Of a stretch of DNA of 64,000 bases, positions 40,542 to 45,448 are shown one piece after another; position 1 is the stretch's first letter; every line of letters starts with the position of its first letter. This DNA is from Promethearchaeota archaeon (GTDB lineage Archaea; Asgardarchaeota; Lokiarchaeia; Sigyniarchaeales; SOKP01). Where the stretch lies: NCBI GenBank assembly GCA_048938895.1, contig JBHLLU010000002.1, positions 1 to 64,000 on the forward strand, written 5' to 3'. The notes below the pieces were generated by a model. The model did not search any database. It was not told the DNA's origin and worked only from the letters and a program-made list of their open reading frames with translations. The position numbers and the translations under genes are program-made.

Positions 40542-41039
40542 TTAATCTAGAGTAGCTCCACCTATAATTCCTAAAATACCACCTGCAGCGCCCATAAAGA
40601 AACTAATCCAAATTCCCCATCTCGCACCAGCAAGACTTCCAAAAAATAGACTATCTCCAAGTCCCAAACCCTCAAAATAACCTAGTTCAAGAAATAATTG
40701 AAGCGAAAGGATAATTGGTCCTGCTAACATGAGCAATCCACCTAATATACCGAGGAATTTAATTTCTACTAATGCTGCTACGAAAGCTACTGCTCCTCCC
40801 GCAACTAATAATATACCGATGAGAAGTAATAACATATCCTCTGCGGAATCTGGTCCAAAATCAATACCAGATATAATTCCAGCTCCCGACCCAAAACCTC
40901 CGATATAGATTGCATCTCCCCCTCCCCAAATGCGCCATAGAGAAAATAAACCAGGAAATAGATAGAATAGCACTATGCTAAGAATTCCTAAAATACCTCC
41001 AACTATAGCAAGAGGTTTACCTGCTCCCATTTTTTTCAC
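40542..41039 (-). CDS. Gly-rich multi-TM membrane protein (tandem paralog 1)
   Basis: MGAG..LAI.GGI.GI, LWR..GG, GPDSAEDML, WG.WI.FFM shared with 41236-41730. Confidence 0.8.
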   Translation of the reverse strand: MKKMGAGKPLAIVGGILGILSIVLFYLFPGLFSLWRIWGGGDAIYIGGFGSGAGIISGIDFGPDSAEDMLLLLIGILLVAGGAVAFVAALVEIKFLGILGGLLMLAGPIILSLQLFLELGYFEGLGLGDSLFFGSLAGARWGIWISFFMGAAGGILGIIGGATLD

Positions 41040-41235: not shown

Positions 41236-41730
41236 TTAATCTGAAGTTGCTCCACCAATGATTCCTAACACGCCTCCTCCAATAGCCATAAAGAAACCAA
41301 TCCAAACACCCCAATTTGCGCCTGCTTGGCTTCCCCAGAGAGCAAACTCAGGAAATCCTTCCCAGAATCCTAATTCAAGAAATAATTCGACTACAAGTAA
41401 GCCTGGACCTGCTAACATAAGAATTCCTCCGATTATTCCAAGGGCTTTATTTTCTGCGATTCCCCCAATAAGGGCTAATACACCACCAGCAATTATTAAG
41501 ATAGCGACTATTAAGAAAAGCATATCCTCAGCAGAATCGGGTCCATAATCAATACCCACCAGTGTGCCAGATGTAGATCCAAAACCGCCAGCAAATATAG
41601 TAAGAGCTGCTCCTCCATCGAACCTCCATAAACAAAAAAATCCAGGCATCGCGTAATACAAAACAATACTAAGAATTCCTACAATTCCACCAATTATGGC
41701 AATAATTCTTCCTGCTCCCATTTTCATCAC
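41236..41730 (-). CDS. Gly-rich multi-TM membrane protein (tandem paralog 2)
   Basis: Collinear high similarity to 40542-41039. Confidence 0.8.
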   Translation of the reverse strand: MMKMGAGRIIAIIGGIVGILSIVLYYAMPGFFCLWRFDGGAALTIFAGGFGSTSGTLVGIDYGPDSAEDMLFLIVAILIIAGGVLALIGGIAENKALGIIGGILMLAGPGLLVVELFLELGFWEGFPEFALWGSQAGANWGVWIGFFMAIGGGVLGIIGGATSD

Positions 41731-41911: not shown

Positions 41912-42424
41912 TTAAAAAGCTCCTGGGCCGTAGACAGTAGCTACAAGTCCTATAATTCCACCAGCATATAATAAATACATTCCAATATCAAATCCACCAA
42001 AATCTAAGATTTTTAAAGGAATAATATCTTCTACTAATGGAGAATCTGTTCCTAGAATATTTGTAATCCAATCGTCAACACTAATGACTCTATAACTTCC
42101 TAAAAAGATTAGGGTAGCTATTCCAAGAGTTAAAAGAGTCCCGATTGCGGCAAAAACTCTTTTCTTCATGCCTAAAATAAGGAAAAGTCCCGCAGCTAGG
42201 AACAAAATGAACCCCACCGCAATAATATAGAGCGAAAAGCCTGGTATATTTAATGTTGATCCTAAATTCTCCGCATCAGTAAACATTGCTCCAAGATTAT
42301 TTATGATTCCCAAACCATTAGCATAGTAAGGAGGTACCGTATCAATCGCATACCACGAAAAGAAATAGGTTGCCAGAATAGTAATTATTCCAGATAACAG
42401 ACTTAACAATTTTCCAGTTTCCAT
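41912..42424 (-). CDS. Multi-TM membrane protein, possibly a distant relative of the two neighbours
   Basis: Similar size and topology, GK.LSLLSGII start, G.YLLYAGGIIGL end. Confidence 0.7.
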   Translation of the reverse strand: METGKLLSLLSGIITILATYFFSWYAIDTVPPYYANGLGIINNLGAMFTDAENLGSTLNIPGFSLYIIAVGFILFLAAGLFLILGMKKRVFAAIGTLLTLGIATLIFLGSYRVISVDDWITNILGTDSPLVEDIIPLKILDFGGFDIGMYLLYAGGIIGLVATVYGPGAF

Positions 42425-42613
42425 TTTGAACCACTTATTAGAAATTTTTAATATTTATAACTAGATAGATCTTGAACTATATTTAAGATTATCTTATTTC
42501 AATAAGTTCTTAATTTACATGTGTGTAATTCAGTTGAAATCATATTAAATGAAACAATATCCTAATTTTAAGAGTAGGCAAACACTTTCAATTTAAATTT
42601 CAAATTTAAAGTT

Positions 42614-42991
42614 TCAAGTTTCTAAAACTAATTCGTTATTTACTTCCTTGATAACAGATAACAATTTGCGCATATTAAAAGGTTTATCAAGAAAAGCACA
42701 AGCTCCTATAGAAAGAGCCTTTTTTTTTATTGTTATGTCCGCACTAGCAAAAATAATTTTAACATGATTATTGATACATAAAATTTCAGCCATGGCGTCG
42801 AGTCCATTTTTTATTGGCATACGATGATCCATTAACACAATATCCGGTTTTTCTTTAAGGTTATTATATTTCTCTATAGCAGTCTTGCCATTATATGCGG
42901 TATCAACAATTTCATACCCCGCTTCAGTTAAAATCAAAGTATATAGCCGTTGGAGAGATTGGTCATCATCCACAATAAAAATCTTTACCAT
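42614..42991 (-). CDS. Single-domain response regulator (REC)
   Basis: IFIVDDD, PDIVLMDHRMP..NG, FASA, FLDKPF. Confidence 0.93.
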   Translation of the reverse strand: MVKIFIVDDDQSLQRLYTLILTEAGYEIVDTAYNGKTAIEKYNNLKEKPDIVLMDHRMPIKNGLDAMAEILCINNHVKIIFASADITIKKKALSIGACAFLDKPFNMRKLLSVIKEVNNELVLET

Positions 42992-43145
42992 ACTGGAACC
43001 TTAAGTGCTTTTTGAAATATTCTCTACCAAAATATCCCATTATGTTTTACAACTAACTTAATAATAACAATAACTTTTATTTAAGTTTAAACAATTGAAA
43101 AGCTAACTGCTACTCTTGGTAATTTTCAATAAAATTGCTATTTCT

Positions 43146-43162
43146 AGAGAAATATTTATATA
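43146..43162 (+). promoter_or_regulatory. BRE/TATA-like archaeal promoter positioned for a leaderless transcript starting near 43188
   Basis: Purine-rich AGAGAAATA followed by TTTATATA (43155-43162), 25 nt before the ATG. Confidence 0.55.
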
Positions 43163-43187
43163 TGTACAATCGATAATTATTCTAATA

Positions 43188-43262
43188 ATGTTTAATAAGT
43201 CTCTCTCTAACAAATTGGTATTGTTATTACTGAGTTTAGTAGTAGTATTATTATTACTCTAA
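43188..43262 (+). CDS. Candidate Leu/Val-rich leader peptide (24 aa, not in ORF track)
   Basis: MFNKSLSNKLVLLLLSLVVVLLLL*: 11 Leu and 4 Val, 14 of the last 15 codons are Leu/Val. Confidence 0.6.
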   Translation: MFNKSLSNKLVLLLLSLVVVLLLL

Positions 43263-43355
43263 ATCAAGAGAGACGAACCTGATTCTTTTTTTGATATAAC
43301 TTTTCTCATGGATTTGTTCTCTCTTGAAGTCCAGAGGATTCCATCTAAAAAAGAA
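43199..43355 (+). promoter_or_regulatory. Candidate attenuator with mutually exclusive helices and a U-tract
   Basis: GTCTCTCT(43199-206):AGAGAGAC(43267-74); TCAAGAGAGA(43264-73):TCTCTCTTGA(43318-27); ATGGA..TTCTCT:AGAGGA.TCCAT(43308-44); T7 at 43286-92. Confidence 0.55.
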
Positions 43356-43403
43356 AATTATGGTTCACAATAACAATGTAGAAAGAAAAAAGGAGGTGAA
43401 AAA

Positions 43404-43562
43404 ATGGAGGAAACCGAAGAACAGTTGATAATAAAAACTACTGTTAAGAAAGAAGAAATTGATTGGGCTAAGTACCTTGACCATACTAAATTTCTTCAAC
43501 CTGCAGAAATGAATAATTATTCCCAAGAACGCTTTAAACGGGATTATGAAGAACTAGGATAA
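43404..43562 (+). CDS. Small hydrophilic protein (52 aa, not in ORF track)
   Basis: Strong SD AGGAGGTGA (43391-43399); MEETEEQLIIKTTVKKEEIDWAKYLDHTKFLQPAEMNNYSQERFKRDYEELG*. Confidence 0.65.
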   Translation: MEETEEQLIIKTTVKKEEIDWAKYLDHTKFLQPAEMNNYSQERFKRDYEELG

Positions 43563-43726
43563 TTTTATTATCTTAATATATTTTATAGCTATATCTCATT
43601 CTTATTATTAAATTATATAATAAATCTTTATAAAAATAATAAATTCTTTAATTTAGTAGATTTACTTCTATTAGTTTTACTTACAAATTTGTATCAAGAT
43701 TTTAAAAATAATTAAGGAAAATTACA

Positions 43727-45448
43727 ATGAAAGATTTAATCATTAAAAATGGCCTGGTTTACGATCCTCTGAATAATATCGATGGGGAAAAGAAAGATAT
43801 CTATATCAAAGATGGAGTCGTTGTAGACAAGGTTAATAGTGATGCAAAGGTTATTGATGCCTCAGGAATGGTTGTGATGCCTGGCGGAGTTGATATACAC
43901 TCCCATATAGCTGGTACAAAAGTAAATGCTGGACGACAATTTCGACCTGATGATAAATTGGAGGAATTTAATGAAAAGCGAACAAAAATAACTCGGAGTG
44001 GCACAGGTTGGTCAGTTCCATCAACTTGGGCTACAGGATATCGATATGCGCGCCTTGGATATACAACCGTTGTAGAGCCCGCTATGCCAATGTTGAAAGC
44101 TCGCCATACTCATGAAGAGTTTTTAGATATGCCTATTATTGACAAAGCAGCTTTTCCTTTATTCGGAAATAATTGGTTCGTAATGGAATTTATAAAAGAA
44201 AAGAATTATGATAAGCTTGCTGCCTATGTTTCATGGATTTTAAAAGTTACTAAAGGTTATGCCGTTAAAATAGTAAATCCTGGAGGAGTTGAAAATTGGA
44301 CCTGGGGAAAGAATGTTAATTCCATAGACGACCACGTTTTTCACTTTGATGTCTCACCTAGAGAAATTCTAGAAGGATTATCAACGGTTAATGAAAAACT
44401 CGGATTACCCCACACAATACATGTTCATGCAAATAATTTAGGGCATCCTGGTAATAAAAAGCATACTCTTGAAACATTTGAAGCTGTAGGAAAAATCAAA
44501 CCAAAAAAAGGAAGAGATTCTGCTTTACATTTAACCCATTGCCAATTTAATGCTTATGGAGGTACAAACTGGACTGATTTTGAGTCTGGAGCCGCGGATA
44601 TTGCTGAATATTTAAACAAACATAATCACATTACAGTTGATGCGGGGCAAGTAATATTCGGTAAAGCAGCTACTACAACGATGACCGCAGACGGACCTTG
44701 GGAATTTGCACTCCATCATATTGGTGGAACTTCTGTTTGGGGCAACCGTCCAGGAATAAAGTGGATTAATGGGCAAGTAGAAGGTGAATCAGGTTCAGGG
44801 ATTGTACCATATTTCTTCTCACCAAAAACGGCAGTGAATGCAGTACAATGGGCAGTTGGACTAGAACTTATGCTCTTAATCAAAAATCCATGGCAAGTAT
44901 TTCAAACTACTGATCACCCGAATGGGGGACCATTTACATCTTATCCTCAAATTGTTCGTTGGCTTATGGATAAGAAGTCTCGAGATGATGTACTTTTAAA
45001 TCAATGCTCTAAAAGAGCAACAGAGAAAACCCAGTTAAAAGATATTGACCGAGAGTTTACATTAAACGATATATGTATTGTAACTCGAGCAGGTACCGCA
45101 AAATGCTTAGGAATGACAGATAGAGGTCATTTAGGCAAAGGAGCAATAGGTGATGTTGCAATTTATAAAATAAATCCTGAAGAAACAGACGGATACGAAA
45201 TTGAAAAAGCATTTTCATTAGCAGCTTATACAATAAAAGATGGAGAGATTGTTGTAAAGGATGGGGAAATTACAGCTACTCCGATGGGTACAACGATTTG
45301 TTCTGAAGGAAAGGTTAAGGATGAAATCATGAAATCTATGCTTGAAGATGTTAAATCTCATTGGCGCGATCATTATAGCATTAACTATGCCAATTATGCG
45401 GTTCATGATGCGTATGCTCCTAAAGTAAAAATTATGAATGGAGTTTAA
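43727..45448 (+). CDS. fwdA: Formylmethanofuran dehydrogenase subunit A (amidohydrolase)
   Basis: MPGGVDIHSHIAG.KVN.GR, K.VNPGG, H.H.NNLG.PGN, TTDHPNGGPF..YP. Confidence 0.95.
   Translation: MKDLIIKNGLVYDPLNNIDGEKKDIYIKDGVVVDKVNSDAKVIDASGMVVMPGGVDIHSHIAGTKVNAGRQFRPDDKLEEFNEKRTKITRSGTGWSVPSTWATGYRYARLGYTTVVEPAMPMLKARHTHEEFLDMPIIDKAAFPLFGNNWFVMEFIKEKNYDKLAAYVSWILKVTKGYAVKIVNPGGVENWTWGKNVNSIDDHVFHFDVSPREILEGLSTVNEKLGLPHTIHVHANNLGHPGNKKHTLETFEAVGKIKPKKGRDSALHLTHCQFNAYGGTNWTDFESGAADIAEYLNKHNHITVDAGQVIFGKAATTTMTADGPWEFALHHIGGTSVWGNRPGIKWINGQVEGESGSGIVPYFFSPKTAVNAVQWAVGLELMLLIKNPWQVFQTTDHPNGGPFTSYPQIVRWLMDKKSRDDVLLNQCSKRATEKTQLKDIDREFTLNDICIVTRAGTAKCLGMTDRGHLGKGAIGDVAIYKINPEETDGYEIEKAFSLAAYTIKDGEIVVKDGEITATPMGTTICSEGKVKDEIMKSMLEDVKSHWRDHYSINYANYAVHDAYAPKVKIMNGV

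Follow-up and report, generated by a model that had tools for sequence, protein, structure and literature searches.

Candidate leader-peptide attenuation for branched-chain amino acids in one family of Asgard archaea

We analysed a 64,000-nucleotide (nt) stretch of a Promethearchaeota archaeon genome (the window; positions 1 to 64,000 of the forward strand of contig JBHLLU010000002.1, assembly GCA_048938895.1), in which positions 43146–43562 hold a promoter, a short Leu/Val-rich open reading frame (ORF), a structured RNA and a gene for a 52-amino-acid (52-aa) protein. The RNA belongs to a family whose members share one anatomy, can form two mutually exclusive, covarying helices, and carry leader ORFs whose composition matches the gene behind them. 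We regard it as quite likely that the family is a translation-sensing cis-regulator for branched-chain amino acids (BCAA); with somewhat less assurance, the window element, one of its members, is probably a ribosome-sensing leader (attenuator). A leaderless, Leu/Val-rich, translation-coupled attenuator was also the reading of the original prediction, made from the letters of the window, and it is now supported by Leu-dominated leaders in front of leucyl-tRNA synthetase (LeuRS) genes and by covariation of the helix between segments 2 and 3. Ribosome-mediated attenuation is generally presented as a device peculiar to bacteria, one that relies on the coupling of translation to transcription. Judged from sequence, the family suggests that in archaea, too, the supply of amino acids is sensed through the translating ribosome. 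The parts of the window element are as follows.

43146–43162, + strand: promoter read from the sequence, a purine-rich stretch resembling a transcription factor B recognition element (BRE) followed by the TATA box TTTATATA (43155–62)
43188–43262, + strand: leader (sensor) ORF MFNKSLSNKLVLLLLSLVVVLLLL with its stop codon (43260–62), from the ORF list
43199–43206, + strand: segment 1, GTCTCTCT, inside the leader ORF (codons 4–7), pairing with 43267–74
43254–43368, + strand: match to our covariance models R1 (139.2 bits) and R2 (112.3 bits, E 3e-18), where the window, as a seed sequence of both, matches by construction and the E-values are rough
43264–43280, + strand: 5′ strand of the extended helix 2:3ext (segment 2 plus CGAACC), 16 base pairs (bp) and −20.0 kcal/mol in the window
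43275–43292, + strand: 5′ strand of the alternative helix P1 (GAACCUGAUUC plus U7; T7 is 43286–43292)
43310–43327, + strand: 3′ strand of 2:3ext, the near-invariant GGAUUUG (43310–16) plus segment 3, UCUCUCUUGA
43347–43366, + strand: 3′ strand of P1, A6-G-A4...GGUUC, partner of the U-tract and GAACC (A6 is 43347–52)
43392–43399, + strand: Shine–Dalgarno (SD) sequence GGAGGUGA ahead of the regulated gene; the stretch around it is A-rich and variable
43404–43562, + strand: regulated gene, encoding a 52-aa acidic protein of no assigned family, conserved at the protein level (core EIDWAxYLDYTRFFEPAEINN)

The leader ORF from ATG 43188, the helices 1:2 and 2:3 and the pairing of T7 with the A-tract are all present in the window as predicted. 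Segment 1 (GTCTCTCT, 43199–206) complements AGAGAGAC (43267–74) exactly over 8 bp, and segment 2 (TCAAGAGAGA, 43264–73) complements TCTCTCTTGA (43318–27) exactly over 10 bp; in relatives segment 1 is (U/C)CUCUCUUGA and repeats segment 3 in direct orientation. Leu or Val fills 16 of the 24 codons of the leader ORF, the residues near the C-terminus being almost all Leu/Val, and its ATG is the inner ATG of a 48-aa TTG-start ORF in the ORF list. The BRE/TATA that had been claimed before this ATG is there too: the first base of the TATA-like TTTATATA lies 33 nt upstream of ATG 43188, the usual spacing in the family, and the window mRNA is predicted to be leaderless, with a transcription start site (TSS) at about 43185–43188. 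The 5′ strand of 2:3ext begins 4 nt past the first base of the stop codon. Behind the leader follows the expected ORF with a strong SD sequence, GGAGGTGA at 43392–99 upstream of ATG 43404 of the 52-aa ORF.

A six-frame search with an alignment of the 52-aa protein returned 14 full modules in the genus and, from a different genus, a diverged one (L036) whose 2:3 helix has both arms swapped for other, mutually complementary sequences. Covariance model R1, built from the 14 close copies, then found diverged members in other genera. From a list of 60 matches (A3) we removed 8 that were antisense or partial and left out the loci lacking a leader ORF (L077, L084, L087, L088, L089 and L092); re-running 37 of the 51 sources gave an alignment of 38 members (A4), after which model R2 was built. 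A search for homologous leaders and their downstream genes had been suggested in the original prediction, and it brought out a family present in 115 of 131 genomes of the organism family f1, with one to four copies each and LeuRS genes among the targets. R2 also matched, weakly, one of 14 genomes of f2 and none of five in f3 and f4; this search gave more than 200 matches altogether. At the level of the phylum it matched 20 of 25 f1 genomes and none of 125 genomes from 26 other families, suggesting that the RNA is specific to one Promethearchaeota (Asgard) family. The source genome has three copies: the window element, one before an archaeal-type LeuRS gene and a variant before a small protein. 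Scans with Rfam 15 gave seven matches in window positions 42500–44200, all well short of the gathering score (the best has 20.9 bits where 56 is required), and none, T-box included, at six representative loci. We also considered a C/D-box or K-loop reading of CUGA...UGAU and rejected it, as snoR43 scored 18 bits against a gathering score of 50, the G is lost in 3 of 14 copies, and no C or D box lies in register. A scan for bacterial sigma-70 promoters and terminators is uninformative for an archaeon.

The shared anatomy was counted on 107 unique copies (105 loci). The promoter consensus AAAATTTTnAnA lies at −38 to −27 before the ATG (106 family members); the last TATA-like match before the ATG starts 31–34 nt upstream in 58 of these 106 and is the conserved TTTATAATA beside the ATG (9 nt) in 21, and the promoter spacing fits a leaderless mRNA with a predicted TSS at the start codon. 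A sensor ORF of 20–31 codons ending at the helix is found in 107/107 copies, with an ATG start in 106. At least seven of its last 12 residues are Leu, Val or Ile in 102 of the 107 leaders, compared to 5.1% of 1091 control short ORFs from the same loci. The frequency of these three residues is 0.92–0.95 at positions −2 to −4 before the stop and about 0.78 as far as −8, and it falls further upstream, where the peptide is poorly conserved between groups. The Leu codons include TTA, CTC, CTT, TTG and CTA, and this use of several codons suggests that what is constrained is the amino acid or tRNA and not the nucleotides. Across the family 2:3ext has 13–17 bp (median 15 bp, about −18 kcal/mol) and starts −3 to +6 nt from the first base of the stop codon in 103 of 107 copies. 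Between its strands lies a T-tract, typically T5–T10, of at least five in 99 and at least four in 106 of the 107. In P1, GAAYC and the U-tract have as their partner A-tract...GRUUC, some 55 nt further downstream.

Many leader N-termini read MIS/LNN/KT(T/A), an N-x-T pattern encoded by AUGAUUUCAAAUAAUACU and common to different downstream genes; those of the window group (MFxK/R) and of the g12 group (MSLLM) depart from it. Leaderless initiation efficiency or pairing at the 5′ end may be reasons for this pattern. Stop read-through or frameshifting was rejected, since the window frame stays open for 37 codons past the UAA but closes after 11 in L016 through a 1-nt indel.

The original prediction had set the 2:3 helix against both 1:2 and a hairpin of segment 3 with a fourth segment. 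A mutually exclusive pair of helices does exist, but the competitor of 2:3 is P1 (43275–92/43347–66) and not the 3:4 hairpin, which comes to just 5 bp (43318–22/43334–38, one G–U) and whose partner AGAGG is absent from 13 close relatives. Around segment 3 a small hairpin, UGGAU/AUCCA, is conserved; it shows no compensatory change and two to three disruptions, and we make no claim for it. The 2:3 helix itself is borne out and reaches further than thought, to about 16 bp, by taking in GGAUUUG (43310–16). The minimum free energy (MFE) fold of the window combines 1:2 with P1 as a 17-bp helix, 43275–92/43347–66, that contains the T7/A-tract pairing. As 2:3ext and P1 use the same GAAYC bases (GAACC, 43275–79, in the window), they are mutually exclusive alternatives. 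For the same reason we rejected a pseudoknot of 2:3 together with P1, whose foot supplies bases to the extended helix; the unextended 10-bp 2:3 beside P1 is possible.

Both helices are supported by covariation. On A4, 87% of the cells of 2:3ext are paired and compensatory changes occur at 13 of 18 pairs; changes on both sides fill 59 cells, compared to 22.7 ± 3.4 in shuffles (none of 500 as many), and in slid registers pairing drops to 31–55%. G–U pairs are frequent (e.g. 19 at one pair and 17 at another), which makes 2:3ext strand-specific and therefore an RNA feature. The near-invariance of GGAUUUG is explained by its pairing with CAAAUCC/CGAAYC. An alignment-free partner-permutation test on 18 representatives chosen from the 38 replaced the fixed-column test of P1. 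In this test cognate partners scored −20.3 for 2:3ext, against −14.8 ± 0.84 for permuted ones, and −18.1 for P1, against −12.3 ± 0.78, with none of 20000 permutations as low in either case. Covariation in P1 is seen, for example, in CUCAUG/CAUGAG versus CCUAUA/UAUAGG and in AAUCCACC/GGUGGGUU. The 1:2 helix, which had also been predicted, is strong in the window subgroup and one other but is not family-wide: its duplex energy is −19.1 kcal/mol in the window group, −15.9 in the g12 group and −14.2 at the single locus L086, while in 8 of 9 other groups it is −6.8 to −10.0, no better than with non-cognate partners.

The genes behind the leaders, classified by BLAST clustering of the first downstream ORF, and the composition of the last 12 leader codons are given below. 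The regular expressions used for the composition classes misplaced two loci, L140 (LeuRS) under 'other' and one small-C locus under small-A.

LeuRS, 50 copies plus three in which the LeuRS N-terminus appears to be called one base out of frame: Leu.58, Val.14, Ile.01; Leu dominant in 52 of 52
Relatives of the 52-aa protein (small-A), 18 copies: Leu.43, Val.32, Ile.04; Leu dominant in 11, Val in 6 and Ile in 2 of 19
FrhB/FdhB-family protein fused to a TrmB-like helix-turn-helix (HTH), 17 copies: Leu.20, Val.17, Ile.41; Ile dominant in 14 of 17
Second small acidic family with the FWKYLD motif (small-B), 12 copies: Leu.42, Val.40, Ile.01; Leu dominant in 8 and Val in 4 of 12
Third small family, 7 copies

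The composition of the leader thus follows the gene behind it. The original prediction had carried the caveat that no BCAA-related gene lies downstream, and this caveat is removed, as the same RNA family precedes LeuRS genes. The identity of LeuRS was confirmed by the Pfam editing domain in three of four proteins tested, and archaeal-type and bacterial-type LeuRS genes both carry leaders, in different genera. In the source genome the family copy at C125:17640–17744 (L093), with the leader MMLNKTVFRYYLKEKLLLDELLTVLLL and a T-tract of only T4, stands before the archaeal-type LeuRS. The name FrhB–TrmB rests on Pfam matches in 2 of the 17 proteins. L066, L072 and 15 further loci (e.g. L111 and L137) have Ile-dominated leaders such as ...SLSIIIVVVLII; the protein behind them has about 480 residues, with a 4Fe–4S motif, FrhB_FdhB_N/C domains and the TrmB-like HTH, and may act as a regulator that senses redox state and is linked to the supply of isoleucine. 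Some leader modules occur as tandem pairs with a spacing of about 630 nt (L097, at 861–965 and 1501–1612; L099; and pairs in e.g. G116:C235, G140:C14 and G119:C123), and each of the two modules has a small acidic protein of its own (LEYYQDWNSD... and ...FWKYLDYSNW...). Within such pairs, the leader that comes first is often without a clear Leu/Val/Ile run (e.g. MNFSRHNTDSWVGCNKKAIIPLVTVL).

A second, unrelated leader was found in the source genome at C61:17623–17885, minus strand (L188), before one of its two isoleucyl-tRNA synthetase (IleRS) genes (TIGR00392, 822 bits). Its ORF, MDVDAMSKPKNFLKSIETIVIITSIIIG, ends in Ile runs (IITSIIIG; mostly IIII in relatives), and the leader shows no sequence similarity to the family of the window element; it has a 10-bp hairpin (CAUGAAGCAG...CUGCUUCAUG) with U6 in the loop, a 5′-terminal GGAUGUGG complementary to CCACAUCC beside the hairpin, and a T10 tract about 40 nt upstream of the gene. 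By BLAST it occurs in 25 of 53 genomes of the genus, with at least one compensatory change visible in the hairpin. We also scanned the source genome with a descriptor (TATA box, ATG ORF of 15–40 codons, stop-adjacent helix of −15 kcal/mol or lower, and at least T5 in the loop). It gave eight hits, seven of them distinct, with the window element first and the IleRS leader second, and no further leaders with amino-acid runs; the LeuRS leader was missed because its T4 falls below the T5 filter. The genome encodes two LeuRS (C125 and C51; by NCBIfam, archaeal type, as a partial match, and bacterial type) and two IleRS (C61 and C146), and only one gene of each pair has a leader, which hints at one constitutive and one starvation-controlled paralogue. 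On C138, about 120–230 nt upstream of the valyl-tRNA synthetase (ValRS) start, we noted a tRNA-like sequence (GGGCCTGTAGATCAGTGG...GGTTCAATTCCCGTCAGGTCCA) with an apparent insert.

The borders of the module identify the gene that it would control. In a DNA search of 41 relatives, four genomes of the same genus contain the whole stretch 43145–43600, with an identity of about 76%. Ten others from this genus lack it, and there the response-regulator gene (42614–42991, minus strand, in the window; Pfam Response_reg) adjoins fwdA, the gene for formylmethanofuran dehydrogenase subunit A (TIGR03121, 786 bits); these ten retain both flanking promoter regions, only 55–75 nt apart. In genome L005 the module sits in a different context. 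Judging by these alignments, the module is a separate unit with its own promoter, and fwdA has another; because the fwdA promoter is conserved in relatives without the module, the regulated gene is taken to be the 52-aa ORF. The original prediction named fwdA correctly, but the gene is probably not the regulated target. No target duplication or terminal repeats mark the borders of this indel of about 500 nt, and a mobile-element reading was rejected. A five-way alignment shows the leader ORF open with an in-frame 3-nt indel and the 52-aa product conserved as protein, and its most conserved part is the non-coding stretch 43262–43335. The leader ORF is open in 14 of 14 close copies.

The 52-aa protein has 85 homologues, all hypothetical, and the 12 with an organism label are all from Asgard archaea. 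It matches no Pfam or NCBIfam family, and an Atlas search gave no usable lead (best score 0.83, against an advised 0.9). AlphaFold2 with 59 sequences predicted only helices, with a pLDDT of 67.5 and a pTM of 0.24. Distant homologues (L030–L034 and L040; REIDWAQYLDYTLFIESGEIGND) have neither leader ORF nor switch RNA and sit behind a membrane-protein gene with their own TATA box, suggesting that the small protein family is older than its leader.

In the working that we propose, a shortage of charged tRNA would hold a ribosome on the terminal Leu/Val codons, where it would cover the 5′ strand of 2:3ext. P1 would then form and hide the U-tract, and transcription, or survival of the RNA, would continue into the 52-aa gene (ON). 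With fast translation the ribosome would terminate and depart, and 2:3ext would form first, since the polymerase reaches its 3′ strand sooner than that of P1; it would leave U7 single-stranded in its loop, where the exposed U-tract could serve as an archaeal termination or cleavage signal (OFF), read intrinsically or with the assistance of aCPSF1/FttA. In the window subgroup, the extra 1:2 helix could keep segment 2 sequestered in the absence of leader translation. We infer the output step and its sign, and this particular wiring, in which a stall leads to P1 and to ON through the U-tract, is tentative, its chances being rather below even.

Several observations fit a stalled ribosome masking 2:3ext. 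The frequency of Leu, Val and Ile peaks at the last four codons and the helix starts at the stop codon; the stop thus abuts the switching strand, and 2:3ext is lost in masked folds with the ribosome at the stop. Truncated downstream of segment 3, the transcript forms 2:3ext (15–16 bp), of which a footprint masking the stop codon leaves 4 bp. In mycobacteria, stalled ribosomes are reported to block mRNA structure directly (10.1101/834739), which fits the same proposal. The U-tract is the only sequence-invariant, non-covarying feature inside the element. In 46 LeuRS leaders nothing is conserved from P1 to the start codon, and the consensus fold through the start codon contains only 2:3ext, suggesting that the output element lies inside the conserved part. 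Sequestration of the ribosome-binding site (RBS) was rejected, as none is conserved and the SD sequence of the window group lies in the variable A-rich stretch; complementarity of the U-tract to the A-rich stretch before the SD, noted on visual inspection alone, can be expected to arise by chance in DNA so rich in AT. According to PMC8716108, aCPSF1 binds terminator U-tracts via its KH domains, and a Lokiarchaeota orthologue behaves in the same way; the source genome encodes a 638-residue Beta-Casp protein.

The following points weigh against our proposal, beginning with the structural evidence. The single-sequence fold of the window is unexceptional (MFE z = −1.70; 12 of 200 shuffles as good). 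Eleven of the 18 tested pairs of 2:3ext belonged to the model with which the alignment was built, although the seven-pair extension did not; P1, which is irregular, gave no significant result on fixed alignment columns, and the 14 close copies from the genus show no significant covariation, with one compensatory pair and shuffles equal. In choosing sensor ORFs we took the most hydrophobic tail among the stops near the helix, a mild bias, and as all members come from one organism family, the counts are not independent events. None of the 107 leaders precedes an ilv or leu biosynthesis gene, the window's 52-aa target has no known link to branched-chain amino acids, and in the source genome no such leader stands before ValRS, the second IleRS, the bacterial-type (second) LeuRS or the methionyl-tRNA synthetase gene. 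As to the fold, ribosome-masked folding had been suggested in the original prediction; masking the stop does remove 2:3ext, but the full window leader prefers 1:2 plus P1 at equilibrium under every ribosome mask tried, and forcing the 2:3 helix in it costs 7 kcal/mol; any switch must therefore be kinetic. A 30-nt footprint removes much of 2:3ext only at the stop or the last two to three codons, and a mask over the last Leu codons still leaves 13 bp; stalls further upstream would give 2:3ext and hence the opposite wiring. Finally, at least T5 directly follows P1 in only 3 of 38 copies, and the T-tract between the strands is transcribed before the strands that distinguish the folds, so that purely intrinsic termination there could not be controlled by them.

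The foremost rival is the same sensor with this opposite, trp-like wiring, which we consider unlikely. A stall in the Leu/Val run would free segment 2, and 2:3ext would mean ON; with ample charged tRNA the ribosome at the stop would mask segment 2, and P1 would mean OFF, by way of cleavage, decay or unrecognised termination, with 1:2 as the default OFF state when the leader is not translated. Such a sensor would be independent of the position of the stall within the run, and the constraint folds suit it: they give 2:3ext (15–16 bp) for stalls at codon 10 or mid-run and lose it only with the ribosome at the stop, whose codon lies inside the base of the helix, while 1:2 in the window subgroup would be a 'protector' helix as in trpL. 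However, P1 would then be without an effector, given the scarcity of T-runs directly after it (3/38) and the lack of any conserved feature downstream. The invariance of the U-tract would be unexplained while the rest of P1 covaries, and Leu, Val and Ile peak in just the last four codons, where a stall would mimic plenty.

It is improbable that the conserved RNA is instead read by a protein, tRNA or small molecule, e.g. as a T-box-like or autoregulatory site, with a short ORF that is incidental or aids translation or stability. Near-invariant GGAUUUG and the U-tract could be binding sites for such a ligand; however, the former is explained by pairing, no Rfam family matches, T-box included, and an incidental ORF would hardly be present in 107/107 copies at a fixed distance from the TATA box, with its stop in the helix base and a composition that follows the downstream gene. 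Least probable is a functional hydrophobic membrane peptide, either a type I toxin (the Ibs-like alternative of the original prediction) or a partner of the 52-aa protein, whose RNA controls its own translation or stability: the peptide does resemble a single transmembrane helix with a basic N-terminus, the module is independent (10 relatives lack it here, and one genome has it in a different context), and the long-range 1:2 pairing recalls toxin mRNAs, but the same leaders precede essential LeuRS genes, their Leu/Ile/Val bias follows the gene behind, the peptide upstream of the terminal run is poorly conserved between groups, and no antisense element was identified, though no dedicated search for antisense promoters was made.

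Taken together, we judge the chances evenly balanced that this is the first case of leader-peptide amino-acid attenuation in Archaea, a BCAA 'ribulon' of one Asgard family in which leaderless Leu/Ile/Val sensors and a two-helix-gated U-tract read by aCPSF1/FttA would control LeuRS, an IleRS paralogue (through the second, unrelated leader), the regulator-like FrhB–TrmB fusion and orphan small acidic proteins, including that of the window. If true, attenuation logic exists outside Bacteria, and the closest prokaryotic relatives of eukaryotes would offer direct genomic evidence of regulatory coupling between transcription and translation. In Asgard archaea, the element would offer a mutable test object both for this coupling and for U-tract/aCPSF1 termination. 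It would also add a new RNA family to the annotation of more than 100 genomes and mark the orphan small proteins and the FrhB–TrmB fusion as members of a BCAA or tRNA-charging response.

Elsewhere in the window, on the minus strand, 40542–41039 and 41236–41730 encode adjacent paralogous Gly-rich membrane proteins of 164/165 residues (MKKMGAG...IIGGAT[LS]D), with a third membrane protein nearby at 41912–42424; the paralogue at 41236–41730, the one scanned, belongs to no Pfam family.

A full-text literature search of a limited collection of papers found no archaeal leader-peptide attenuator in their searchable parts. Leader-peptide transcription attenuators of bacteria include E. coli trpL, leuL and ilvL, of which ilvL is multivalent for the three branched-chain amino acids, and pheM-pheST, in which a synthetase gene is under the leader peptide. 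The archaeal leaders resemble these in having a short upstream ORF rich in cognate codons (Leu before LeuRS, Ile before IleRS), mutually exclusive helices, and a stop and regulatory codons placed so that the ribosome could select the helix; the optional 1:2 helix is shared with the trpL type, and the synthetase gene as target with pheM-pheST. They differ in belonging to Archaea, in their predicted leaderless mRNA and in having orphan small proteins among their targets. Their regulatory codons reach the stop, and no sequence or Rfam relationship links them to the bacterial leaders. Furthermore, the U-tract does not follow a hairpin but is situated between the competing strands, and one of the folds pairs it with the A-tract. 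There is no U-run directly after 2:3ext, and the conserved T-tract lies upstream of both 3′ strands; as there is no hairpin-plus-U terminator, the bacterial ilv/leu logic that the original prediction had invoked, like that of trp, cannot be transferred one-to-one.

The T-box leaders of Gram-positive aminoacyl-tRNA synthetase genes bind uncharged tRNA directly and have no sensor ORF. Like them, the RNA described here is a cis-acting leader upstream of leuS/ileS genes with a proposed response to tRNA charging; unlike them, it has a sensor ORF, and Rfam scans gave no T-box match. Leader ORFs also control factor-dependent termination in Salmonella mgtL-mgtA and E. coli tnaC. In our proposal, translation of the ORF would likewise expose or hide the site of a termination factor by selecting among RNA folds or ribosome positions, but the factor would be aCPSF1/FttA on a U-tract (PMC8716108) and not Rho on a C-rich rut site.

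In a bioRxiv study (10.1101/834739), mycobacterial leaderless poly-Cys short ORFs are reported to form a 'Cys ribulon', in which a stalled ribosome blocks mRNA structure. The two systems share a leaderless sensory ORF, a codon run for one amino acid and several loci per genome; they differ in domain and amino acids, and whereas the blocked structure of the mycobacterial type sequesters the RBS of the next gene, here there is no conserved pairing of the RBS, the conserved alternative being the U-tract/A-tract helix. The nearest functional case is pheM-pheST, together with ilvL, with the mycobacterial poly-Cys ORFs also close, and the distinctive points of the archaeal family are its domain and an output step that probably differs.

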